64,000 nt of DNA from Chlamydiota bacterium (lineage in GTDB: Bacteria > Chlamydiota > Chlamydiia > Chlamydiales > JAAZZY01). Positions 2,967 through 17,488 of this stretch are shown in pieces (positions within the stretch are counted from its first letter, which is position 1; each line of letters starts with the position of its first letter). Both the position numbers and the translations under genes were made by a program. The stretch covers positions 1,176-65,175 of the forward strand of contig JAJACV010000049.1 of NCBI GenBank assembly GCA_022601335.1, given 5' to 3'. The notes beneath the pieces are model-generated. The model saw only the letters and a list, made by a program, of their open reading frames with translations, made no database searches and was not told the origin of the DNA.

Positions 2967-3443
2967 TTAGATCAAGGCTCCTTCGAATGAAAGGAGTCTT
3001 TTTTTTATCTCAACCCCTCCATTGAACTCTCCCAATGTTTTATTTGATCTAATGACTCGATGACAGGGGACTATAAAAGGAAAGGGGTTCTTCTTACAAG
3101 AAGAGCCTACGGCTCTTACAGCCTTTGGAGAAGAAGTCATTTTTGAAACCTGCAGATAACTACAAGTTTCTCCAAAAGGTATTTTTGTAAGAGACTGCCA
3201 GACTTCTCGCTGAAACGGTGTGTAGTCTGAGAGTAATAAATTTATTTCGAAGGGAGTTTGCTTTTTAAGACTATAGCTTTTGAGCCATTTCTCGAGTAAA
3301 TACTGATTTTTTAGTGGGAGGTCTCCATGAAGATGCACTTCAAATTGAGAGTGAAGCGATAATTCAACTTTTAAAATCTGATTTGAGGAGACATGAAAAT
3401 GGACCAAAATTTGAGGGCCCTCTTCAAAAGTAAACACTTTCAC
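2967..3443 (-). CDS. ogt: Methylated-DNA--protein-cysteine methyltransferase
   Basis: Active-site motif IVPCHRVI, preceded by the helix-turn-helix region IPFGETCSY. Confidence 0.9.
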   Translation of the reverse strand: MKVFTFEEGPQILVHFHVSSNQILKVELSLHSQFEVHLHGDLPLKNQYLLEKWLKSYSLKKQTPFEINLLLSDYTPFQREVWQSLTKIPFGETCSYLQVSKMTSSPKAVRAVGSSCKKNPFPFIVPCHRVIRSNKTLGEFNGGVEIKKRLLSFEGALI

Positions 3444-4426: not shown

Positions 4427-6826
4427 TTAAAAGGGTTGAACAATCAAATTTTTCATCTTTTTAAGCACCTCGTTCATTATTTTGGCGTGCTCGATCTCAG
4501 TAGCTTCAAAAGAAATAGTCTTTTTATCATTTCTGTACACAAAGCGCAAGGTAACATTTTTTCTTTCTACCCCTAAAGATTCACTGCGATAAATATCTTT
4601 GAGCTCAATTTGCTTTAAAAGTCTAGATTCTAAAGACTTTACAAATGTTATAAGATGCCCTATTTCTAAATCTTCTAAACAGGTGAGAGTCCAATCTCTT
4701 TCACTACTCGGAAAGTTAGAAAGAGGCTCTATAGATTCAAGAGGTGTAGAGAGTGTCAGAAGTGAAGGAATGCTTAGCTCAGCAAACAAAACACAATCCT
4801 TGAGGCCTTGGGTTCTCAAAATAGAGGGGTGGATTTCTCCAATGGACCCAATTATTTTGCTACGAGCAACAAGGTTTGCTTGAATACCTGGATGCATAAA
4901 TGCATGGTGAGATTTTTCAAAAACAACCTCTTTGATTGATAAGCGATCTAATACATTTTCTAAAATTCCTTTCAGATCGAGAAAATCTACTTTTTTTTCA
5001 GAGTGTTGAAAGTGAAGAGGAGAGGTACGTCCCATAAGGGAAACGGCAAGTTTAGTTTCTTCTTGAAATAAGGAGTCGTTTTTAGAATAAACTTTTCCTA
5101 TCTCATACAGTTGATTATTAAAGTTTTGGCGATCTTGATTTAACTTCAGTACTTGCAAGTGGTTTGCTAAAAGAGAATTTCTGAGAATAGATTGATCTAT
5201 AGAGACATAATTAAGTGCAGAAATTTGATTCTCTTCTTTTTGTTGAAGAGAAGCCATTTGAGGACTAATCAAATCACAAGTTAATATTTCTTGTAATCCT
5301 TCTTGGAGAAGGAATTGATGCGCTTTTTGTTCAAAAGTGTAAAGAGGGGAATCACTTAGCGACGTAAAAGTTGAGGAAGGTTTGGCATGCATAATTCGAT
5401 CAAATCCGTAAAATCTAGCCACTTCTTCAACAAGATCAATCTCATTTTGAACATCATTACGATAAGAGGGGACCTGAACCGTTAGCTTATTCTCGTGGTT
5501 TTTTTGAGGATTAAAATCAAGTCTGTGTAGAATATCAATCATCTCGTCTAAAGGAATTTGAGTTCCTAAAAGTCGGTTAATAAATGAAGGGTCACACTGA
5601 AGTGACTTTGGCCTAGAAATGGCCTTTGAGAGCGCCACAACGCCTTCGCATACCTCACCATGAGCTATTTGCTGTATCAAGCTAGCTGCACGATCAAGAA
5701 CTCTTTCAGGTGCTTTTTCATCGACTCCTCTTTCAAAATGCTTAGAAGCATCTGTAGATAAGTTGAGAGATTTACTTGTTTTTCGAATCAACTGGGGGGA
5801 AAAAACAGCGGCTTCGAGTAAAACATGCTGAGTTTTGTCACTCACTTGTGAGTTAGCTCCTCCCATGACTCCAGCTATTGCCAAAGGCTTCTCCGAGTCG
5901 CAGATGAAAAGTGTCCCAGCTGGAACGTTTCTTTGAATGTTATCTAAAGTTTCAAATTCTTGTTCTGAGGGGAACGACTTGACATTGATTTGAGCCCCTT
6001 CAATTTTATTGAAATCAAAAGCATGTATGGGGTGACCGAGTTCATGGAGAATGTAATTTGTAGCATCAACCACGTTATTAATACTTTTAATTCCAGAAGC
6101 GCTAAGACGCATTTGAAGCCAGAAAGGAGAAGGGCGTATGGTGACATTTTTAATGAGACGACAGGCATAACGAGGGCATTGGTTTGCGTCAGAGACTTTA
6201 ACGTTTACACAATCTTCTGTTCGAGAGTTCTTTGTTTCATTGAGAGGGAAAGATTTTAATTCAAAAGGCTTGTTAATAAGACATGAAATTTCTCTCGCTA
6301 TTCCAAGAACACTCATAGCATGTCCTAGGTTCGGAGTAAAAGAAATCTCTAAGATTTCATCGCGGAGATAGGGAGCAAGATCTTCTCCTGGTTCTAAATC
6401 TTCAGAGAGCTCGATAATTCCTTCGCTGTTTTCTTCCATGCCCAACTCCTCTGCAGAGCAGAGCATGCCGTATGATTCAATGCCTCTTAACTTCCCTTTT
6501 TTAATTTTATGAGCTTTTCCTTCTTTATCAATGAGGTGAGAGTTAATCGGAGCAAATGCAGTGACTAAATTAGCTCTGCAATTAGCAGCTCCACATACAA
6601 CTTGTAGCTCTTGCTCTCCATCGAATACCGTAGCTATTTTGAGCCTATCCGCGTCGGGATGAGGCTTTACGTCTATCACTTTAGCAACGATGAGGCCTTT
6701 AAAAGAAGGTTCAAGGATTTCTATAGCGTCTACTTCTAAACCAAGCTTAGTAAGTTCATTCTCTAAAAAACTAGAAGTTAAGGAGGTGTTAAAAATTTCT
6801 TGAATCCAAGCCAAACTAAAATGCAT
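4427..6826 (-). CDS. pheT: Phenylalanine--tRNA ligase beta subunit
   Basis: 799 aa. The N-terminal tRNA-binding domain (VVAKVIDVKPHPDADRLK), B3/4, B5 and C-terminal anticodon-binding-like regions are all recognisable. Confidence 0.97.
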   Translation of the reverse strand: MHFSLAWIQEIFNTSLTSSFLENELTKLGLEVDAIEILEPSFKGLIVAKVIDVKPHPDADRLKIATVFDGEQELQVVCGAANCRANLVTAFAPINSHLIDKEGKAHKIKKGKLRGIESYGMLCSAEELGMEENSEGIIELSEDLEPGEDLAPYLRDEILEISFTPNLGHAMSVLGIAREISCLINKPFELKSFPLNETKNSRTEDCVNVKVSDANQCPRYACRLIKNVTIRPSPFWLQMRLSASGIKSINNVVDATNYILHELGHPIHAFDFNKIEGAQINVKSFPSEQEFETLDNIQRNVPAGTLFICDSEKPLAIAGVMGGANSQVSDKTQHVLLEAAVFSPQLIRKTSKSLNLSTDASKHFERGVDEKAPERVLDRAASLIQQIAHGEVCEGVVALSKAISRPKSLQCDPSFINRLLGTQIPLDEMIDILHRLDFNPQKNHENKLTVQVPSYRNDVQNEIDLVEEVARFYGFDRIMHAKPSSTFTSLSDSPLYTFEQKAHQFLLQEGLQEILTCDLISPQMASLQQKEENQISALNYVSIDQSILRNSLLANHLQVLKLNQDRQNFNNQLYEIGKVYSKNDSLFQEETKLAVSLMGRTSPLHFQHSEKKVDFLDLKGILENVLDRLSIKEVVFEKSHHAFMHPGIQANLVARSKIIGSIGEIHPSILRTQGLKDCVLFAELSIPSLLTLSTPLESIEPLSNFPSSERDWTLTCLEDLEIGHLITFVKSLESRLLKQIELKDIYRSESLGVERKNVTLRFVYRNDKKTISFEATEIEHAKIMNEVLKKMKNLIVQPF

Positions 6827-6955: not shown

Positions 6956-8254
6956 ATGAGCCGGAAGAAAAGGAAGTTAAAAGCCTTAAGGGATAAAGAA
7001 GAGACGAGTCGTGATCAAAATTCAACTCGTAGGCTGACCGGTGGACTTATTTTTAGCGGTGCTTTGAATATCGCACTTGCAACTTCATTGATCTATTACG
7101 CTCTCAAAGCCAAAGAACCTACTTTTCCCTATCCAAATTCTTCTGTTGAATCAGAGCTTACCTTGGATCTTTCTAGAGAAATTTCACTTCAAACCTCTGT
7201 TGAAAAGTATTTAAATCTTGATTTTGAAAGCCTTGTGCTTCTTCTTAAAAAAAAGGATGTGATCCAAGATGGAATTTCTGAAAGAGACTTAGCTCTTTCA
7301 GCTCTCGCGTTCAAATATGATGTTGATGTAAACAGAGCTTTGCATGGTCAAGGTGTTGATACGCTTCCTTTTTGTCTCGATCAAAATAAAGAAAATTCTT
7401 TTCCCCTTTATGTAGGCTTAAAAGAGGGGCAGTATAAGTTGATACAATCTTTTTTAAAGACAGAGCAGTGGCCCTATACCTGTGAGGGACTTTTTAACCG
7501 AATTGTAATGGGACAAAGTGAAAATTCTTTAAAAAATGCTTTTTACTTAACCAAAGAGTTTATGCTTTTAGAAGCTCTGTTTGGTCCCTTATCCTTAAAT
7601 AAAGAAGCGCTTCTAGATCTAATGAAGGAAGGCCCTTGGTCGATTGTAAAGCAATTTGTTCAATCCAAACCTCTTGTTGAAAATTTTTCTAACCCGCTTC
7701 GAATTCATTTTCTATGTCAATATTTAGAATCTGCTTCAGAACAAGCTGCTAACTTTATTTTAAAAATAGATCCAAACTATGCCTTAAATAAGCTTTCCGA
7801 TGAAAAAGTAGTCACTCTACTCGGACTTTTGGAAAATAAGTCAGAACTAAATCAAAACTTTGCTCTTCACTTAGCTCTTGGAGCACGGTCTGATTGGGTA
7901 CGCCAAGAGGCGTGTAGGCTTCTTTACCATTACTCAGAGAAAGAATTTACAGCTCCTTTTAATTACCAAGAAGCTCTTGAATTCTTGGCTCGTGAATACG
8001 AACTACTTCCTCATGAAATTCCTTCCCTGGATTTATTTCCTATTGAGGGCAAGCAGACTTCTTTTATATCCTCTGTAACAGCAGACCTTACAGACAACGT
8101 GTCTGTTGCAGCTAAGCAAGTTTATATCGTTCAAAAAGGGGATTGTTTATCTAAAATCGCTAAGATGCATCACATCGATGTGAAAGAGCTTAAGGCGGCG
8201 AATCATCTAGATAATGATCTGATACACGTGGGTATGACCCTTTTGATTCCTTAG
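6956..8254 (+). CDS. Membrane-anchored protein with a C-terminal LysM peptidoglycan-binding domain
   Basis: One N-terminal TM helix ([24 protein letters not shown]). The C-terminal LysM signature is [29 protein letters not shown]...GMTLLIP. Confidence 0.75.
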
Positions 8255-8597: not shown

Positions 8598-9935
8598 ATG
8601 CCGGCATTAGCCCCAATTCAAACCGATTTTCAGGTCATTTTTTCAGATGAGAAAAAACTACAAGAAATAGTAGCTCCCTATTCAAAAGCTGATGTAACTG
8701 AATTTTTTCAAAATAAATACGGGATTTCTATAGAAATTAATCCAAACCTTTCTGAGGAAACACCGAGAGTCACCGAAAAAAACTCACTTCCAAATCTCTT
8801 TTTTGAAACAGTTTATCAAGATGAAGATTTAACCGTATTTTATCCCGATTCTCCTCGTGTTCCACATCAACTCAGCGTGGTCTTGAATCGCCAAGTTAAG
8901 GGAGTTCAAAATCTAACTTCTCAAGAAAATTTGAAACTGTACCACCTAATTAAGAGAGTAAATGAGATTTATGTGAATCAACTAGACTTAGATGGGTTTG
9001 TTTTAGCTCAGTATTCAGATCCTCAGGAAAGACACCACAATCGCACTGTCATTGAACTTTTACCTCATCAGCCAGGTTTTAATAATTGTCGAAATTTTTT
9101 AGACAAAGCTGATTCTAATCGTTATGTATTATTTGGAGATCAATCATTAACCTCTCTGGACCTATCCCTTTCTGAAGAAGAAAAAGATATGCAAATTTCT
9201 TTTTGGAAGAGAGAGTTGAATAAAGATCAGGAAAAAATTTCAGATGATAAATTACGTCTATCTTATCCTTACGAAACTTTTGATACCCAAGCAGAAGAAT
9301 TACAATCTTTTGTTGTGTCAAATATAGTTAAACTCTTCGAAAATGCGGGAGCTCAAATTATCAGCAGCTCTGAACATCAATTCTCCTATGCACTAAACAG
9401 CAAAACAGAGCATAAAGCTCGCCAAGTATTTGATTGCGCTTTTTGTAGAGATCAAGTGATTAATAGACAAAAAGTTTTAGAGTACAAAGATGCTTATGTA
9501 CTTTATAACTTCAGAAAAATGCCCCATGCGGCTTCTAGTTTTTTGATTCTCCCTAAGGAGCATTTAGAAAAAATGTATTTACTCTCAGATGAAAAAGTCC
9601 ACACTCTTTCACTTTTGAAAAAGGCTCTTATTAATGTTCTAAAAAATAAATTTCCAGATTTTGAAGTGGTTGTCTACAATCAGGACTCTCCATCAGTGGG
9701 TCAAACCGTCTTTCATACCCATGATCAGGTCGTTGCGATTGATCCAAAAAAAGTTCCTTTTTATTGGTCGATGATGTCCTTAGCTTATAACCCAAATAAT
9801 GTATCAGGTGGAGTGTCTGAGGATGAAATGTCTACTGTTACACAAGAAATAGGAGAGCTTTTGAATGCTGAGGTCCTCAGACTAGAAAGTGAAGAAAATC
9901 ACCATTCCACTCAAGAGGCGTTTGATTATTTTTAG
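8598..9935 (+). CDS. Tandem HIT-fold protein (degenerate N-terminal repeat, C-terminal repeat with an HxHxQ motif)
   Basis: The C-half has CAFC...LILPKEH...GQTVFHTHDQVV. The N-half has the same fold pattern (DLTVFYPDSPRVPHQLSVVL...) but lacks the His triad. Confidence 0.6.
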   Translation: MPALAPIQTDFQVIFSDEKKLQEIVAPYSKADVTEFFQNKYGISIEINPNLSEETPRVTEKNSLPNLFFETVYQDEDLTVFYPDSPRVPHQLSVVLNRQVKGVQNLTSQENLKLYHLIKRVNEIYVNQLDLDGFVLAQYSDPQERHHNRTVIELLPHQPGFNNCRNFLDKADSNRYVLFGDQSLTSLDLSLSEEEKDMQISFWKRELNKDQEKISDDKLRLSYPYETFDTQAEELQSFVVSNIVKLFENAGAQIISSSEHQFSYALNSKTEHKARQVFDCAFCRDQVINRQKVLEYKDAYVLYNFRKMPHAASSFLILPKEHLEKMYLLSDEKVHTLSLLKKALINVLKNKFPDFEVVVYNQDSPSVGQTVFHTHDQVVAIDPKKVPFYWSMMSLAYNPNNVSGGVSEDEMSTVTQEIGELLNAEVLRLESEENHHSTQEAFDYF

Positions 9936-10196: not shown

Positions 10197-10853
10197 ATGT
10201 TACAGCTATACTACTGGTTTAAGGGTGTTTTAATTGGTTTTTTGGTTTCCGCTCCTATTGGCCCTGTAGGCATTTTATGCATTAAAAGGGTTATTAATAG
10301 AGGTGTTTTTCAAGGCTTTGCTACGGGGCTTGGGGCCTCTTTAGGCGACGGTTTTTACTCTGCTTTAGCAGCTTTTGGTTTGACATTTGTTTTGAATTTT
10401 CTCATCAGAGAAGAGTTTTGGTTTCGTTTAATCGGAGGTCTCGTTCTTATTGGGATTGGAATTCTTTGGTTGCTCAAGAAGAATAAATATGAGGGATTTA
10501 AAAAAAATCCACAGAAATCACGCCATGTAGGAGAAGCCTTTACAACAGCTTTTTTACTTAATTTAGCAAATCCCGTTACGCTACTAGTTTACTTGGCTCT
10601 TTTTTCAGGATTTGGGTTAGCGAATGCAAGTGCACATATCTTTTCAGCTTTTTCACTAGTTTTAGGAGTCATTATGGGAGCCGCTGCCTGGTGGTTTCTC
10701 CTTGTTGAAGTCGTAGCTCTTTTTAGAAAAAAACTCACAGAAAAATCTTTTGAGGTTTTAAATAAAATTACAGCGGACCTTGTGATTGCTTTTGGGTTAT
10801 TTGTCTTGTTAACAACTGTTTTTCATATTAAAATTTTTGGACAATCCTTTTAA
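10197..10853 (+). CDS. LysE/RhtB family amino-acid efflux protein
   Basis: Multi-TM protein whose N-terminal pattern GFLVSAPIGPVGILCIKR...GLGASLGD is typical of LysE-type translocators. The ATG at 10197 is preferred to the TTG at 10155. Confidence 0.8.
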   Translation: MLQLYYWFKGVLIGFLVSAPIGPVGILCIKRVINRGVFQGFATGLGASLGDGFYSALAAFGLTFVLNFLIREEFWFRLIGGLVLIGIGILWLLKKNKYEGFKKNPQKSRHVGEAFTTAFLLNLANPVTLLVYLALFSGFGLANASAHIFSAFSLVLGVIMGAAAWWFLLVEVVALFRKKLTEKSFEVLNKITADLVIAFGLFVLLTTVFHIKIFGQSF

Positions 10854-11833: not shown

Positions 11834-12522
11834 ATATTTATTTCACTTAATTGACCATAGAGCGCTCTTATTTTCTCTTTCAAATCAGAAGAAATTTTTT
11901 GTTGCGAAAGAGCTATAAAAGAGCGCTCTTTGACTATAGAAAGTAGATAGCCAAGTTCTTCGGAAGTAAAAGGAAGCTGCTTTTGAGGGGCACATTTTTG
12001 GCAAAAATAATCTTTAAAACAAAAATAAAGATGGGACGGCTTGATATGACAGCGAGAACAGTGAGACTGCAGGGTTAAGCATCCTTCAAGCAAAAGAACT
12101 TTCAGATAAAAACTGGAAATAAGGGCAATCGGGTTTGAGGAAGTCAAAAGTTGCTTGAGGTATAACTTAAGCAAGTTAAAAAGGTCCATTGAGGGAGTGG
12201 AATCTAATTGAGTTTTTGAAATGGCCTCAAGCAAATCAAAAGCGGTTGTTAAATGATCGTAGGAATTGCGTAAGCCTAAAAAAGAATCCAAGAGCCTGCC
12301 CTCACAAAAGGTGTAAAAATCACCTCGTCTTTTCTTTAAAACATATGTGGCGTAGGTCAGAGGCTCACAAAGAGAAAATTTGTTACCCTTGAGTCTATTG
12401 GCCCCTTTGACAAATAGCTTAATTTGTCCCATCTCTTTTGAAAATAGAGTCACAATGCGATCGTAGTCTTTAAAGGCTATCGAAGAGAGGACAAAAGCAT
12501 CTGTAATGAGTTCTTGAGTCAT
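11830..12522 (-). CDS. recO: DNA repair protein RecO
   Basis: N-terminal OB-fold pattern DAFVLSSIAFKDYDRIVTLFSKEMGQIKLFVKGA and a C-terminal Cys cluster (CSRC...CQKC). Confidence 0.85.
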   Translation of the reverse strand: MTQELITDAFVLSSIAFKDYDRIVTLFSKEMGQIKLFVKGANRLKGNKFSLCEPLTYATYVLKKRRGDFYTFCEGRLLDSFLGLRNSYDHLTTAFDLLEAISKTQLDSTPSMDLFNLLKLYLKQLLTSSNPIALISSFYLKVLLLEGCLTLQSHCSRCHIKPSHLYFCFKDYFCQKCAPQKQLPFTSEELGYLLSIVKERSFIALSQQKISSDLKEKIRALYGQLSEINI

Positions 12523-12677: not shown

Positions 12678-13349
12678 ATGGCATCTATACAGAACGAATT
12701 ATCAATTTATCGTTTTCATGTGAGAGATTCTTTAGATGAAACACAACCAGCGACTCATCCAGAGTATCTCTCTTGGACTAAAAAGCTCCCAGAAAGCCAT
12801 GATGCATCCCAAGAATACACGGCTATTAATATTCGAGATTTAGAAGATCCAAGAAATGTTTCAGGTGGCCAGTTACAGATTAAAGTTAAATCAGTTCCCC
12901 TAGATCTACCCCAAAGGATCGTATATTTCACAAATTTTACTATTGGGCCTCAACCGCACGTGCACCTATTGACCCCAGGAAAGGTTTTTTGCATTTCTGC
13001 TGATAATTATTACTTGGAGAAAATCGATATAGAGATGAGCGAGGGAAGTGTCACAAAAGTGACCGGATTATGTGTCTCAGAATATCTTACAAATCCTCTC
13101 AAGGGCCTGGTAGAGTTTTCCTTATGCAAGGAGGGAGCCTGTGAAGATAGTGAAGGTGATAAGTTTGATGTTTCTGAACAAAAGCGATTAGAAAGTAGAA
13201 CTGTTTTTGGCGAAGGTGTAACAGATATCTCCACACCGCTCAGATCAAGAGTGAGTTCTTTGCCATTATCGGGTAGAGATAGAAATATCAATGGAGAAGA
13301 GAGTGACAAAAAACTTAATACAGCTTTCCTCTCAAATGAAAGTTTTTAA
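12678..13349 (+). CDS. Hypothetical protein
   Basis: Long ORF with a plausible RBS (AAAGAGGA) upstream of the ATG. No motif recognised. Confidence 0.4.
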   Translation: MASIQNELSIYRFHVRDSLDETQPATHPEYLSWTKKLPESHDASQEYTAINIRDLEDPRNVSGGQLQIKVKSVPLDLPQRIVYFTNFTIGPQPHVHLLTPGKVFCISADNYYLEKIDIEMSEGSVTKVTGLCVSEYLTNPLKGLVEFSLCKEGACEDSEGDKFDVSEQKRLESRTVFGEGVTDISTPLRSRVSSLPLSGRDRNINGEESDKKLNTAFLSNESF

Positions 13350-13453
13350 CATAAATGACTCTTTAAAAAAAAATATTTATTAAGCTGAAAAAGGCGATTA
13401 ATCTGGGAAAAAACTTACCCGGATGATAAAATGTCTCTTCTATCAATACTCTT

Positions 13454-13527
13454 GCACCGATAGCTCAATTGGATAGAGTTCCCGGCTTCGAACCGGGCGG
13501 TTAGAGGTTCGAATCCTCTTCGGTGCA
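13454..13527 (+). tRNA. tRNA-Arg (anticodon TCG); CCA not encoded
   Basis: Hand-folded cloverleaf. Acceptor GCACCGA/TCGGTGC, anticodon stem CCCGG/CCGGG with loop CTTCGAA, T-arm AGAGG TTCGAAT CCTCT. Confidence 0.95.
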
Positions 13528-13683
13528 TTTATTTCGTTAATTTCTATTTAGCTGACATTCCGTAAGCTTTTTAAACTTTGGTTAAAAAAATTGCCCATCT
13601 GTGTTGTTCAACAAGTATTTTTTGAATCGAGGTTTTAGGCTAGCTTTCACAAAATGATGAATGATTATTTAATTATTTTTATA

Positions 13684-13749
13684 GTGCAATTGGTGCAATT
13701 GTGTTAGGGTTGGTGTTATATGAAATATAATGGTGCAATTGGTGCAATT
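13684..13749. repeat. Two copies of the 17-nt GTGCAATTGGTGCAATT (each a tandem of GGTGCAATT-like 9-mers) bracketing a TATAAT box and the candidate start codons; operator-like
   Basis: Identical 17-mers lie at 13684-13700 and 13733-13749. TATAAT is at 13726-13731. Candidate ATGs are at 13720 and 13750. Confidence 0.8.
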
Positions 13750-15090
13750 ATGGCAAGAGAGAAGTTTTTTGATGAAAGAGAATCTAAGGTATTAGAATTT
13801 AAATCTTCACTACCCAAGTTTGAAGTTTTAATAAAAACTTGTATAGCATTTGCCAACGGTGTCGGAGGGCGTATTGTAATTGGAGTCGAAGATATCACGC
13901 GAGAAATATGTGGCATTAATGAAAAAGTGAGAAACAGAATTTATGATGATTTTCCAAACAGCCTATTTGATTCGACAAGTCCAGGCCTTTTAGCGCAAAT
14001 TTATGAGAAAAATTTTGATGAGCGATCTGTTATTATCATACAAATACCTTCAATTCTTAAAAAGCCTTGTTTTAATCGAAAAGAGGGCTTGCCCAAAGGG
14101 GTTTATCTAAGAGTTGGTTCTAGTACTAGACGTGCTACAGAAGAATATGTAGAAGATTTAATGAGAGAGTCAAGGAGAATGAGCTATGATGAAGAATCTC
14201 TTCATTTATCGATCAAAATTTTTTCCAATGAATTATTGAGTTTCTTTTTTGGTCAGACACAAACAAAAAGACGTTTAATATCTGAAAAAGTCATCGTACA
14301 ATCTTCAGCTAATTCAGAGATATTTTTCCCCACCGTGGCTGGAGTCATGCATTTTTGTGACAATCCCGAAGAGTATATTCCAGAAGCATCTATTTTATGC
14401 ACTCATTTTGAGGGAGTTAAAGGGAGAAATATCATTCAAACTCAAGAAATTACGGGAAATTTGGAACAACAAGCAACCACCAGCTTAAAATTAATTGAGT
14501 CTTGGATTTCCCGGAAGTTTACTCTTCAGGGAGTTAAGTTGGCTTCTAAACCAATAATTCCTCACTCTGCTTTAAGAGAGGCCGTAATAAACGCGCTTAT
14601 CCACAGAAAATATTTTATTCCCGGGTCTATAAAAATTGCATTATATGACGATCGTGTAGAAATTTTTAGTCCGGGGAGCTTTCCAGGCCTAGTTGATGTG
14701 AATCATCTTGGGGATGGGACTACTTTTCTTCGCAATCCGAATATTGCTAGATTAGCTCGTAAACTAGGGCTTGTTGAAAAAATGGGAACAGGTATAAGGC
14801 TTATTTTTGATAGTTGTAAAAAAGCAGGGTTGCGAATTCCAGAATTTCATGAAGAAGGAGACTTTGTAAAACTAATCTTTTTTGTTCAGCCCTCAAAGCA
14901 CCCTCAAACAAGCGATGAAGAATCTATTTTAGAACTCGCTAAAATAAGGACAGATTTAAGTATATCAGAAATAATGAATTATCTAGGTGTCTCGAGGAAT
15001 ACAGCAACTAGAAAGCTGAATCTTTTGATTGTGCAGAAAAAGCTAATAAGAACTGGAAAAGGGCCCTCTGTTAGATATAATCTAGCGTGA
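13720..15090 (+). CDS. AlbA_2 (Schlafen-like) plus HATPase_c_4 plus C-terminal wHTH protein (putative ATP-dependent DNA-binding protein)
   Basis: N-terminal ESKVLEFKSSLP...IAFANGVGGRIVIGVED is the AlbA_2 signature. The central part is ALREAVINALIHRKY...VEIFSPGSFPG, and the C-terminal part is LSISEIMNYLGVSRNTATRKLN. The true start may be the ATG at 13750. Confidence 0.7.
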   Translation: MKYNGAIGAIMAREKFFDERESKVLEFKSSLPKFEVLIKTCIAFANGVGGRIVIGVEDITREICGINEKVRNRIYDDFPNSLFDSTSPGLLAQIYEKNFDERSVIIIQIPSILKKPCFNRKEGLPKGVYLRVGSSTRRATEEYVEDLMRESRRMSYDEESLHLSIKIFSNELLSFFFGQTQTKRRLISEKVIVQSSANSEIFFPTVAGVMHFCDNPEEYIPEASILCTHFEGVKGRNIIQTQEITGNLEQQATTSLKLIESWISRKFTLQGVKLASKPIIPHSALREAVINALIHRKYFIPGSIKIALYDDRVEIFSPGSFPGLVDVNHLGDGTTFLRNPNIARLARKLGLVEKMGTGIRLIFDSCKKAGLRIPEFHEEGDFVKLIFFVQPSKHPQTSDEESILELAKIRTDLSISEIMNYLGVSRNTATRKLNLLIVQKKLIRTGKGPSVRYNLA

Positions 15091-15114
15091 ATAGAAATTT
15101 CAGATTTATCTGGT

Positions 15115-15132
15115 GGTTCGAATCCTCTTCGG
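15115..15132 (+). repeat. Direct repeat of the 3' part of tRNA-Arg (att-like scar)
   Basis: GGTTCGAATCCTCTTCGG at 15115-15132 is identical to 13506-13523 inside tRNA-Arg(TCG). Confidence 0.85.
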
Positions 15133-15202
15133 CGCGTTTTTCTTTATTTTAATTCCCTTGTTTTAGTAATGTGATGCCTCAAGTAATACAATAAGAGGTT
15201 CC

Positions 15203-15817
15203 ATGTTTTCTAAAGAAGAGGCTCAAAGTTATAATATCTCTATTACAGGTCGGCATGTTTTAGTCACAGATGCTATGAAGACATACGCACATGAAAAACT
15301 ATCTAAAATAGAGCAGTTTTCAAAAGAGATTATTGATATTCACATGACCATGGATATACAAAGACAAGAGCATCGTGTCGATATTCTTGTTTCAGTAGGA
15401 CATTTTGTTATAAAAACTCACGCATCTACCCAGGACATGTATGCTTCTATAGATAAATCTGTAGATAAGCTGCTTGCAAGACTTAAGCGTTATAAATCTA
15501 AAATGCAAGAGCACCATGAAAAGAAACTATCCACGGTTGAGCTTGAAGTAAGTGTCGTTCGAAGCGCTTTTTCGAATGAAGATGAAATCAATGATGCCAT
15601 TGAAGATGAAAATTATAAACACCTTGAAGAAGATTTTAATCATCAAATTGTAAAAACTGAAGTCCTTCCAATGAAAATGCTTACTGCTAATGAAGCTGTT
15701 ATGAAAATGGATTTATCGGGGGATACCTTTTTAGTGTATCGTTCTGAAGAGGAGCAAAAAATTAAAGTTATTTACAGAAGAAAAAGTGGTGATTATGGGG
15801 TCATTACACCGGATTAA
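15203..15817 (+). CDS. hpf: Ribosome hibernation promoting factor, long form
   Basis: The N-terminal ITGRHVLVTDAMKTYAHEKL pattern is typical of the RaiA/HPF sigma-54 modulation protein family. A C-terminal dimerisation extension is also present. Confidence 0.9.
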   Translation: MFSKEEAQSYNISITGRHVLVTDAMKTYAHEKLSKIEQFSKEIIDIHMTMDIQRQEHRVDILVSVGHFVIKTHASTQDMYASIDKSVDKLLARLKRYKSKMQEHHEKKLSTVELEVSVVRSAFSNEDEINDAIEDENYKHLEEDFNHQIVKTEVLPMKMLTANEAVMKMDLSGDTFLVYRSEEEQKIKVIYRRKSGDYGVITPD

Positions 15818-15819
15818 AC

Positions 15820-16488
15820 ATGTTTAAACATCGTGATATAGAAATTTACTGGCTTAAGCATGCTGGGTTCAAAATTAAAAACAAAGATGGCGTTCTCTAC
15901 ATAGATCCTTTTCAGTTGACTAGGGAGCAGGAGAAGGCGGATGTAATTATTTTGTCTCATACGCATGCCGATCATTTAGATCCTGTCTCACTGCAAGCAA
16001 TTTCTAAGAAAGAAACGACTATTTTCTGTTCTCAGGATGCTCCGGAAAAGCTCGCTGAAATGGTACAAGTCGATGCTGTTATGGCCATGCATCCTGATGA
16101 GGAAAAAATTTTTGGCCATCTGAAAATTCATACCTACCCAGCCTATAATTTAGATAAGCCCTTCCACCCCAAAGAAAGTGGCTGGCTCGGCTTTGTAATT
16201 GAAATGGAAGGGACTCGGATCTATTTTTCTGGAGACACGGATTCTTTAGAAGAATTAGAAAAAGTGCAGTGCGATATTGCTCTTTTACCCGTCTCCGGAA
16301 TTTATGTTATGACAGCAGATCAAGCTGCAGCCTTTGCAAATAAAATAAAGCCCAAAGTGGTCTCTATTCCTATGCACTGGGGGACGCTCATAGATGATCA
16401 AAATAGAAAAGTAGGGACCCTAGAAGATGCACAGAAATTTTGTGATCTCTGTGAGGGCCCTAGTCAAATACTTCCTACAAACGCATGA
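15820..16488 (+). CDS. MBL-fold metallo-hydrolase (UPF0173-like)
   Basis: The HxHxDH motif ILSHTHADHLD. The start lies 2 nt after the hpf stop. Confidence 0.85.
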   Translation: MFKHRDIEIYWLKHAGFKIKNKDGVLYIDPFQLTREQEKADVIILSHTHADHLDPVSLQAISKKETTIFCSQDAPEKLAEMVQVDAVMAMHPDEEKIFGHLKIHTYPAYNLDKPFHPKESGWLGFVIEMEGTRIYFSGDTDSLEELEKVQCDIALLPVSGIYVMTADQAAAFANKIKPKVVSIPMHWGTLIDDQNRKVGTLEDAQKFCDLCEGPSQILPTNA

Positions 16489-17039
16489 TTCAAACCCTTT
16501 TTATAGCTTGCCTCAGTGCTTTAGCTGGCGCCTACTTATTTTATTGGGTAGCACGGCTTTTTTTAAGATTAAAATTGAAAAAACGCTTTGGTCGTGCCAG
16601 CCTCGGGGAAAAAGAAGCCGAAGAAATTTTACTTGAAAAAGGTTATAAAATAGAAGAGAGGCAAACCTCTTCAAAGTTGTCCATGTGGGTGAATGGCCTA
16701 GAGCATTCCTATCTTGTGAGGCCCGATGCTTTTGCTATAAAAGAGAATAAACGCTACCTGGTAGAAGTTAAAACAGGAAAACTAGCAACTAATCCAAAAC
16801 ATGCTCCTACTAGGAGACAGCTTTTAGAATACTTTCATGGGTTTGATGTGGAAGGTGTCTTACTCGTCGATGCAGACCAAAAGGCGATTCATCAAGTCCA
16901 TTTTACACCTCTTAAAATGGAAGTAGCTCAAGAAAGTTTTGTAGAATCTCCTCTGCCCTCACCTAAAAAATTTAAAGTGTTTTTAGCTTTTTCAATAGGG
17001 CTAATTTTTGCCTTTTTGTTAGGGGCTCTATGGCGTTGA
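16485..17039 (+). CDS. Membrane-anchored PD-(D/E)xK (RecB-like) nuclease-fold protein
   Basis: TM helices at both termini. The core is GEKEAEEILLEKGY...RPDAF...LVEVKTGK...RRQLLEY, i.e. D, ExK and QxxxY motifs. ATGA overlap with the upstream gene. Confidence 0.5.
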   Translation: MIQTLFIACLSALAGAYLFYWVARLFLRLKLKKRFGRASLGEKEAEEILLEKGYKIEERQTSSKLSMWVNGLEHSYLVRPDAFAIKENKRYLVEVKTGKLATNPKHAPTRRQLLEYFHGFDVEGVLLVDADQKAIHQVHFTPLKMEVAQESFVESPLPSPKKFKVFLAFSIGLIFAFLLGALWR

Positions 17040-17488
17040 AACAAGTTTTCGATCCCATACGAAAAATATGGGTCTCAGCTACACCCGAAGAAATTGTGCG
17101 CCAAAAATGGATTGAAGTCATGGTGCGTCATTTAGGGTTTCCTAAAGAATTACTTGTTGTTGAAAGAGGGGTGAAATTATTACCCCATTTAAAGGGTGCC
17201 TCGCTTGGATGTCCAGATAGACGCGTAGATCTTCTCGCTTATGCAAAGGGAGAAGAGGGGAATCTTTTCCCTCTTCTACTTATTGAATGTAAATGCACTC
17301 CTTTAAATGCTAAAGCGCTAGCTCAGGTCTTTGGATATCATCACTACATTCAATCAAAGTTTTTAGGTTTGGCTAATGAAGACGAAATTTTAATCGGATA
17401 CCAAACAAAAGAGGGGATGCAAACTTTAAAATTTCTTCCTGATTACTCGCAGCTACTAAAAGCCATGGTCTCCCCCAATCATTCCTGA
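17030..17488 (+). CDS. HsdR_N-like (type I restriction enzyme R N-terminal domain) PD-(D/E)xK protein
   Basis: ATPEEIVRQKWIEVMV...RVDLLAY...LLLIECK...AQVFGY gives D, ExK and QxxxY motifs. Overlaps the upstream gene by 10 nt. Confidence 0.6.
   Translation: MALKQVFDPIRKIWVSATPEEIVRQKWIEVMVRHLGFPKELLVVERGVKLLPHLKGASLGCPDRRVDLLAYAKGEEGNLFPLLLIECKCTPLNAKALAQVFGYHHYIQSKFLGLANEDEILIGYQTKEGMQTLKFLPDYSQLLKAMVSPNHS

Follow-up and report, generated by a model that had tools for sequence, protein, structure and literature searches.

Results

Anatomy of the islet at tRNA-Arg(TCG)

We analysed a stretch of 64,000 nucleotides (nt) from a Chlamydiota bacterium (GenBank assembly GCA_022601335.1, contig JAJACV010000049.1, positions 1,176 to 65,175), referred to below as the window. 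Between its tRNA-Arg(TCG) gene and hpf lies a short segment, the islet, which carries a single gene for a protein of the Schlafen family and ends in a second copy of the 3' end of the tRNA. The parts of the islet and its flanks are listed here by window position and strand; loci retrieved from elsewhere carry L numbers.

13454..13527, + strand: tRNA-Arg(TCG), intact; proximal (attL-side) boundary of the islet (ARAGORN; Rfam RF00005; orthologues adjoin hpf in L003 and L004)
13506..13530, + strand: copy 1 of the direct repeat, putative att core (exact 18-mer at 13506-13523, two mismatches up to 13530)
13528..13651, no strand: left spacer, non-coding and locus-specific (blastn; list of open reading frames)
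13652..13749, + strand: putative conserved promoter/operator leader travelling with the gene (DNA homology and motif positions)
13750..15090, + strand: cargo gene, encoding a prokaryotic Schlafen of 446 amino acids (Pfam, PADLOC, PHROG, AlphaFold, Foldseek)
15091..15114, no strand: right spacer of 24 nt from the stop codon to copy 2, locus-specific, with a small CAGAtttaTCTG hairpin
15115..15139, + strand: copy 2 of the direct repeat, putative attR core (exact 18-mer at 15115-15132, then CGCGTTT)
15140..15817, + strand: native downstream flank with a T-rich tract, the hpf promoter region and hpf (15203-15817) (Pfam; synteny with L003-L008)

Three tRNA genes are found in the window by ARAGORN, among them tRNA-Arg(tcg) at 13453-13528, which Rfam RF00005 matches over its full length (13454-13527, 68.6 bits). 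When both strands of the 64-kb window are searched with up to three mismatches, the 18-mer GGTTCGAATCCTCTTCGG of this gene occurs at exactly two sites, 13506-13523 and 15115-15132. The recurrence, reported in an earlier note made from the sequence alone, is thereby confirmed. Two or more matches to the 18-mer appeared in none of 100 dinucleotide-preserving shuffles, and the longest chance match to the tRNA in 200 mononucleotide shuffles of the whole window was 15 nt. No shuffle of either set reaches the observed repeat, and chance was rejected as its source.

The earlier note had described the 18-mer as the T-arm plus the 3' acceptor half of the tRNA. The T-arm is indeed represented, by T-stem positions 52-53, the T-loop and the 3' T-stem, but of the 3' acceptor strand the 18-mer takes in no more than the initial 4 nt. 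A repeat finder extends the repeat to 25 nt with 23/25 identical positions (GGTTCGAATCCTCTTCGG[T/C]GC[A/G]TTT), copy 1 reading GGTTCGAATCCTCTTCGG-TGCA-TTT and copy 2 GGTTCGAATCCTCTTCGG-CGCG-TTT. The extended copy 1 covers the acceptor 3' strand plus 3 nt past the tRNA end. The two copies differ at two of the four positions formed by the last three acceptor bases and the discriminator: TGCA for the tRNA, CGCG for copy 2. On the other side the similarity stops abruptly 5' of the GG. Neither of the window's two remaining tRNA genes has a copy of its 3' end close by.

The distance from the start of one copy to the start of the other (13506 to 15115) is 1,609 bp. The cargo gene is the only open reading frame (ORF) of at least 23 amino acids (aa) lying wholly between them, and its stop codon (15088-15090) is placed 24 nt before copy 2, close to the 25 nt given in the earlier note. 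The left spacer holds only two ORFs of 22 aa each. Private sequence brackets the cargo unit, with 123 nt on the left and 24 nt on the right. In blastn against all fetched loci, the left spacer matches only the window and contigs of the same organism, and the stretch 13528-13720 has no match in phage or plasmid collections. As the earlier note had stated, no integrase lies between the repeats: the single real ORF of the islet encodes the Schlafen-family protein, and no recombinase or transposase is found there. The same holds for its identification of the next gene as hpf, where Pfam reports Ribosomal_S30AE and Ribosom_S30AE_C at 15203-15817.

Several other identities were tried for the islet and for copy 2 and rejected. 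The islet has no inverted repeats at its ends and no transposase, and a repeat of 18-25 bp is too long for a target-site duplication made by a transposase, which argues against a transposon, an insertion sequence (IS) or a miniature inverted-repeat transposable element. As an intrinsic terminator copy 2 is unconvincing, since it folds no better than its shuffles (z 0.13) and a terminator scan makes no call. The earlier note had also raised the possibility that copy 2 is the remnant of a second, degenerate tRNA gene. In a permissive Rfam scan of 13000-15600 (E<=1) the real tRNA is the sole match, and before 15115 stand the end of the cargo ORF and a short private spacer, which show no tRNA-like similarity.

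An independent assembly of the same organism, a Logan contig of SRR15145662 (L001/L002), has its position 1 at window 13490, and breaks inside tRNA-Arg 16 nt before copy 1, possibly through strain variation at the tRNA. A coexisting empty-site allele was considered for this break; the break point misfits the k=31 expectation for either junction.

The tRNA-Arg/hpf junction in related genomes

Related loci were fetched via hpf, with one genome per species. The three nearest relatives, of which L003 and L004 are the closest two, share 63-65% amino acid identity in hpf, and more distant metagenome-assembled genomes (MAGs) of Parachlamydiaceae type were also found. The relatives keep the gene order tRNA-Leu(GAG) ... 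recO ... tRNA-Arg(TCG) ... hpf, and the flanks of the islet are made up of housekeeping genes (recO, the tRNA, hpf and a gene for a metallo-beta-lactamase (MBL)-fold protein). The space from tRNA-Arg to hpf in the relatives is as follows.

L004: empty, with the hpf ATG 69 nt past the tRNA
L003: empty, about 90 nt
L005: 190-aa GNAT-like ORF on the reverse strand
L007: rlmN-like gene
L008: 355-aa ORF, unrelated

The five relatives thus display four states of the junction, and the cargo gene is there in none of them. The junction is a variable spot. The earlier note had proposed looking for an empty tRNA-Arg/hpf junction, which L003 and L004 provide; it had also named the presence of the gene at this place in all relatives, with no repeat, as fatal to its interpretation, and no relative examined has the gene there. 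In the window, the end of copy 2 is separated from the hpf ATG by 70 nt, as against the 69 nt between tRNA and hpf in L004. Because the two spacings agree, copy 2 marks the original 3' end of the tRNA, and the segment between the copies is an insertion relative to the empty site (into, or with duplication of, the 3' part of the tRNA). The 3' end of tRNA-Arg reads TGCA in all relatives.

In L005, positions 1519-1541 contain a 15/17 match (GAATCCTCTTCGATGCA) to the 3' end of tRNA-Arg. It sits in the intact GNAT-like reverse ORF (1218-1790) and was treated as a probable coincidence, though it is unlikely by chance. Past hpf and the MBL-fold gene, the window (16485-17488) encodes a 184-aa ORF without a Pfam match and then a 152-aa HSDR_N_2 protein resembling the N-terminal part of type I restriction R subunits. 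The latter gene occupies the same place in L007 and L008, a conserved position that makes it part of the core genome, outside the islet.

The cargo protein

The cargo gene has an alternative upstream ATG at 13720, which would give a protein of 456 aa. Pfam places SLFN_AlbA_2 at residues 11-129 (E 3e-20) and HATPase_c_4 at residues 293-377 (E 5e-23), followed by a C-terminal winged helix-turn-helix (wHTH) with matches to DIP2311-like_C and HTH_DeoR. The architecture read by the earlier note, AlbA_2 (Schlafen-like) plus HATPase_c_4 plus wHTH, is borne out by these matches. PADLOC models of proteins associated with prokaryotic Argonautes (pAgo) match the cargo weakly, and PHROG 12156, annotated as 'DNA helicase', matches it over the full length (E 3e-63).

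An AlphaFold (AF2) model built from 34 homologues has a mean predicted local distance difference test score (pLDDT) of 74.5. Its best Foldseek match among solved structures is DIP2311 (3LMM; E 4e-20). Foldseek also recovers the N-terminal nuclease domains of SLFN13, SLFN11, SLFN14, SLFN5 and SLFN12, the DNA-binding domain of SAMD9, catalytic (CA) domains of histidine kinases, GHKL folds and winged helices of ArsR/MarR type. The family profile 'rESkllEFK ... iGVeDkt' aligns with 'pESQLVEFK ... IGVDDKS' of SLFN11 and 'ESTHVEFK' of SLFN14. In the cargo the corresponding motif is E11-x4-E16-x-K18 (ESKVLEFK); among the 34 homologues E11 and E16 never vary, and K18 is kept in at least 90%.

A 2026 study catalogued 5,930 prokaryotic Schlafens (pSlfns), with Ex4(E/D)xK as the catalytic motif and Slfn-HisKinase-HTH as the second commonest architecture (19.2%) (PMC13056530). 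Judged by its sequence, the cargo is a member of this Slfn/HisKinase-like/HTH class with an intact Ex4ExK motif. Anti-phage defence was shown for two architectures, DUF262-Slfn and Ig-like-Slfn, and the pSlfn group includes anti-phage tRNA nucleases (PMC13056530). The earlier note had called the function of such proteins essentially unknown. This view is dated, since the architecture is among the commonest of the pSlfn group, which has two experimentally validated anti-phage members, both of other architectures. Nuclease activity and a role in defence are predictions for the cargo, by analogy with published activities that concern other architectures.

The GGTGCAATT array upstream of the gene

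Four 9-mers of the sequence GGTGCAATT precede the cargo gene, at 13683-13691 (one mismatch), 13692-13700, 13732-13740 and 13741-13749, the last of them abutting the ATG. The motif is present upstream of the gene in 10/10 homologue loci fetched by protein identity, usually in tandem pairs repeated every 29 nt, with starts at -9, -18, -38, (-47), -58 and -67 relative to the ATG. Its density there is 26 per kb, compared with 0.087 per kb elsewhere in the ten loci, an enrichment of about 300-fold. In L084 (7809-7981) the array grows to five pairs with a 29-nt period. Arrays were also seen in L083 (5749-5795), in L206-L212 and in L242.

A metagenome scan with an 18-mer, the tandem GGTGCAATT pair, recovered at least 120 loci, and 24 of the 120 matches listed flank a homologue. 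Among the matches listed, 15 place the array just upstream of a close homologue, on contigs from other phyla and with several of the genes pseudogenised, and at least nine place it in reverse orientation, abutting the stop codon of a distant homologue (24-27% identity). The array of L117 coincides in part with a promoter-like TTGACA/TATATT pair before an AAA-type ATPase gene. The remaining matches listed are coding Gly-Ala-Ile repeats. On viral contigs the 18-mer has 22 matches, all of them coding Gly-Ala-Ile or collagen-like repeats, which were rejected as operators. The motif was found in no paper of the searchable literature.

Reverse arrays were observed in L175 (4166-4200) and, similarly, in L101, L114, L147, L159, L187, L189, L194 and L201. 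In L175 the distant homologue ends in …KGAGSYYKL*, followed by AATTGCACC-AT-AATTGCACCAATTGCACC, and it lies between genes for a 647-aa GHKL ATPase and a 993-aa helicase, with the look of a three-gene defence operon. In L095, L107, L171 and L180 the array is kept upstream of frameshifted or truncated Schlafen genes (ORFs of 61-345 aa). The persistence of the array before broken gene copies on metagenome contigs indicates that the family decays often.

The element is found in either orientation with respect to genes, and the most economical reading is therefore a DNA operator recognised by the winged helix of the family. We infer from its position and association that the array is probably the protein's own, autoregulatory operator, and autorepression of a potentially toxic nuclease is its likely purpose.

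Distribution of the gene

Close homologues with 67-81% identity are found in other chlamydial MAGs and in metagenome contigs. The next tier (55-60%) comprises Legionellales, Berkiella and other Gammaproteobacteria. Members of the wider superfamily (<31% identity) are present on 182 plasmids and 47 phage genomes, and a scan of viral contigs revealed no relatives of the cargo. In the 11 chlamydial-type contigs retrieved, the neighbourhood of the gene differs in each. DNA homology between the window and the homologue loci runs from 13652-13671 to the stop codon and no further. Surroundings of the gene in the homologue loci include the following.

L083: tRNA-Asn-linked island with the Schlafen gene, a decayed further copy of its 5' end and an integrase fragment of 72 aa
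L084: adjoins PBP and DUF952 genes
L085: tRNA-Asn about 6 kb from the gene
L206: follows yebC
L207: adjoins an IS21 fragment
L208/L209: follows a SIS-domain gene
L210: gene, then a terminator hairpin, then a tRNA-Asn 3' end
L211: truncated 50-nt 3' fragment of tRNA-Asn, 90 nt from the unit
L212: adjoins a group II intron
L242/L243: lies between DUF2709/tsaE and a dehydrogenase gene

The gene is a roaming module. A tRNA-Asn gene or fragment is nearby in four of the homologue loci (L083, L085, L210 and L211), and the homologues in L085, L211 and L207 adjoin Fic, AbiEi-like, Bro-N or IS21-fragment sequences. In L083, the decayed 5'-end copy consists of 55 nt at 91% identity (4923-4994 vs 5742-5967) and is overlapped by a called reverse ORF; the same island (also 859-1077 and 7612-7683) further holds acetyltransferases and a beta-lactamase-fold gene.

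Repeat-separated gene arrays in two homologue loci

In L211, an exact direct repeat of 52 nt brackets the Schlafen unit. It is part of a longer unit of about 195 nt, composed of the truncated 50-nt tRNA-Asn 3' fragment and about 145 nt of further sequence, which is found three times (1-152, 1527-1720 and 3201-3255). The third instance comprises only the last 55 nt, 52 of them identical to the second. These units separate three single-gene modules: ORF399 (399 aa), the Schlafen unit and an AbiEi-like gene. The pattern suggests tandem accretion at tRNA-Asn.

In L085, the gene is flanked by a 42-nt repeat at 93% identity, which forms a stable hairpin of 42-45 nt (AAAACTCCAGTTACTGG...CGAACTTTTAACTGGAG, z = -4.3). 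The hairpin occupies five intergenic positions over about 5 kb (7879-7920, 9418-9459, 10700-10735, 12155-12195 and 13187-13226), with one further copy in a duplicated segment (within 5627-6285), all in one orientation. It separates single genes of the Schlafen, Fic, AAA_14/DUF4143, Bro-N and HD families, and the element is also found in L207 (5835-5870) and L212 (3350-3388). The hairpin holds the position that the tRNA-Asn 3' end has in L210 and loosely resembles its reverse complement; it may mark module boundaries.

We rejected the hairpin as a true tRNA 3' end, its stems being unpaired as a T-arm and the likeness to the tRNA-Asn 3' end being a loose one, and also as an integron attC site, whose RYYYAAC/GTTRRRY cores were not seen by eye. 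Because the L085 and L211 repeats both belong to dispersed or multi-copy repeats, they are not simple target duplications. The two arrays could be the remains of tandem accretion at a tRNA; that they are ordinary dispersed repeats is just as plausible. The idea that flanking repeats generally accompany the gene unit was likewise rejected, as they occur in only three of about 15 loci with usable flanks.

Discussion

Origin of the islet

We consider it probable that the islet is a minimal relic, flanked by putative att sites and devoid of an integrase, which resembles a cis-mobilizable element (CIME) and carries a prokaryotic Schlafen under predicted autoregulation. The anatomy of the locus points to site-specific recombination. 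Tyrosine integrases that target tRNA genes typically leave a repeat which begins in the T-stem and reaches the tRNA 3' end (the T-loop sublocation class), and an enzyme of this kind may have made the present one. The earlier note had taken the repeat for an attL/attR-type scar of integration into a tRNA gene, and this view is supported by the empty sites and by the non-tRNA nature of copy 2. On each of two IMG/VR viral contigs, GGTTCGAATCCTCTTCGG, there derived from other tRNAs, occurs twice; this is consistent with an attL/attR pair and supports the integration reading. Many of the single matches on viral contigs are partial tRNA 3' halves with similarity from the anticodon loop.

According to this model, recombination at the T-loop/3'-end region of tRNA-Arg(TCG) would have brought the segment into the chromosome. 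The tRNA would have stayed intact on the attL side, and an 18-25-bp duplicate of its 3' end would have come to lie on the attR side, directly before the original tRNA-hpf spacer. The empty attB would consist of tRNA-Arg followed directly by TTTTTCTTTATTTTAATTCCC, and the circular attP would read ...CAGATTTATCTGGT-GGTTCGAATCCTCTTCGG-TGCATTTATTTCGTTAA... Renewed movement would be expected only with a cognate tRNA-Arg-specific integrase supplied in trans. The cargo module would comprise a promoter, the GGTGCAATT site array and one Schlafen gene. The wHTH is predicted to bind the array, which would extend over the ribosome-binding site and start codon of the gene itself, and so to keep the nuclease repressed; upon a trigger such as phage infection, sensed via the ATPase-like domain, the Slfn domain would cleave tRNA or other RNA.

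Several points weigh against this history. A crossover in the T-loop predicts TGCA in copy 2, where CGCG is observed; two later transitions would explain the difference, as would a crossover 3' of the tRNA that left the element's version in attR. No integrase was found among the 17 window ORFs scanned with Pfam. The composition of the cargo gene is not deviant (GC 0.359, GC at third codon positions 0.26, codon-usage deviation rank 36 among 46 window genes), which makes this comparison, suggested by the earlier note, uninformative on a foreign origin: neither GC nor codon usage is foreign relative to the window genes. Taken together with the two substitutions between the repeat copies, the fully native composition indicates that the insertion is probably old, and, with no integrase in the islet or among the scanned ORFs, it suggests an old and fixed one. 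The relatives with empty sites are distant (hpf about 65% identical), and for this reason the insertion is undatable and not strictly separable from loss elsewhere; gain here is favoured by parsimony and by the distribution of the gene. Several homologue loci lie between housekeeping genes and have neither a tRNA nor a flanking repeat, and the gene therefore also moves by other routes. As for the proposed role in defence, HisKinase-fusion Schlafens gave no protection when tested in E. coli in the published panel (PMC13056530).

Alternatively, the islet may be a cargo-only single-gene cassette, inserted and excised at tRNA 3' ends or att-like repeats by an integrase encoded elsewhere, and able to build integron-like arrays. 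We regard this, the main rival reading, as possible but unlikely. The bracket is very tight, with 123 + 24 nt of private sequence and no pseudogene debris, and in L211 the gene is enclosed by an exact 52-nt repeat belonging to a unit that separates three single-gene modules, much as the L085 hairpin, always in one orientation and shared with L207 and L212, separates single genes. On the other hand, neither sequence nor length (18/25, 42 and 52 nt) links the repeats of the three loci, no terminal site belongs to the conserved unit itself, as homology ends at the stop codon, and repeats are wholly missing from about half of the loci with adequate flanks. No integrase is seen beside any array, gene orientation in the L085 array is mixed, unlike that of integron cassettes, and the islet, with its native composition and diverged repeat copies, looks old.

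Insertion that was not site-specific, either by homology-facilitated or Campbell-type recombination on the tRNA T-arm or by a staggered cut that duplicated about 25 bp of target, is improbable in our estimation. It would account for the CGCG of copy 2, which would suit the acceptor stem of a donor tRNA and not the resident TGCA, and the 18-mer is a near-universal tRNA segment, with 29 viral-contig matches from several different tRNAs; the gene is also found at sites with no tRNA and no repeats. However, RecA-dependent recombination would have very little to work on in 18-25 bp, insertion facilitated by homology on one side normally leaves no direct repeat, and the extent of the repeat, from T-stem to 3' end, is of the kind noted above for tyrosine integrases. 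Still less credible is an ancestral presence of the gene at the junction with loss from the relatives by recombination between the repeat copies. The distance of the empty-site relatives and the native composition of the gene would agree with it, but five relatives with four junction states all lack the gene, its close homologues are scattered in non-syntenic places, and the repeat would still need an earlier duplication or integration event. As to copy 2 being a chance match or the stump of a decayed second tRNA, T-arm sequences are conserved and can recur. We give this next to no credence in view of the shuffles (0/100 and 0/200), the lack of any tRNA-like match at E<=1 around 15115, the upstream sequence, which is the 3' end of the cargo ORF, and a distance from copy 2 to hpf which matches the tRNA-hpf spacing of the empty L004 site.

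Implications

Interpreted as a relic of site-specific integration, the islet offers a clean minimal example of a stand-alone, predicted defence gene fixed in a reduced and mostly static obligate intracellular genome, the route of fixation being a tRNA gene and the only trace a short scar. It also places a prokaryotic Schlafen in Chlamydiae. The closest non-chlamydial homologues belong to Legionellales and Berkiella, which fits gene exchange among bacteria sharing amoebal hosts. The most useful novelties are the candidate GGTGCAATT operator array and, on related chlamydial contigs, the arrays of single genes separated by repeats. The former is a candidate operator for HisKinase-HTH, the most poorly understood major class of Schlafens, and a sequence tag for finding such genes in metagenomes; the latter, if they arise by site-specific recombination, would represent a new route of defence-island assembly.

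A broader and decidedly speculative proposal, which we think rather unlikely to hold in full, is that environmental chlamydiae and other intracellular bacteria exchange single-gene defence modules, each with its promoter and operator, which are inserted in trans at tRNA 3' ends or tRNA-derived att-like repeats and may accumulate into integron-like arrays. The islet would then be the simplest instance, with one cassette, and the GGTGCAATT array an autoregulatory switch that makes a toxic Schlafen nuclease safe to transfer.

Comparison with known systems

A CIME is an element that keeps attL and attR and has lost its integration genes (PMC5704250). The islet appears to share with such elements the attL/attR-like repeats at a tRNA 3' end, the lack of integration and transfer genes, an accessory (predicted defence) cargo and absence from related genomes. 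It differs in being far smaller (1.6 kb, one gene), in having no known cognate integrative and conjugative or integrative and mobilizable element, and in its native composition and repeat copies that differ at 2/25 positions. A documented precedent for tRNA-linked integration in the same phylum is the island Pam100G, with a tRNA-Gly gene and 17-bp direct repeats (PMC548262). A proximal tRNA gene and a short boundary repeat (17-18 bp) are common to both, whereas Pam100G measures 100 kb, carries tra genes, transposases and a recombinase and uses tRNA-Gly; the islet, at tRNA-Arg, consists of one gene and lacks mobility genes.

Integron cassettes are likewise single-gene modules, and in L085 and L211 repeated elements of uniform orientation stand between such modules. 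In contrast to integron cassettes, the repeat bounding the islet is the 3' end of a tRNA, the module has its own predicted promoter/operator leader, IntI was not found, and by eye the L085 repeat has no attC-type R''/L''/L'/R' structure.

The cargo has in common with the HisKinase-HTH pSlfns the Slfn/AlbA_2 domain with Ex4ExK, the GHKL/HisKinase-like domain and the C-terminal HTH. About 70% of pSlfns are located in defence islands; the gene of the window stands among housekeeping genes, and its homologues in L085, L211 and L207 have the Fic, AbiEi-like, Bro-N and IS21-fragment neighbours listed above. Over the ATPase-like and wHTH regions, no protein matches better in structure and sequence than DIP2311 of Corynebacterium diphtheriae (PDB 3LMM), but it is only 16-19% identical to the cargo, longer (583 aa) and itself uncharacterised. 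The islet does not represent a new type of system; it joins kinds that are already known, namely CIME-like islets, tRNA-linked chlamydial islands and the HisKinase-HTH proteins among the prokaryotic Schlafens.

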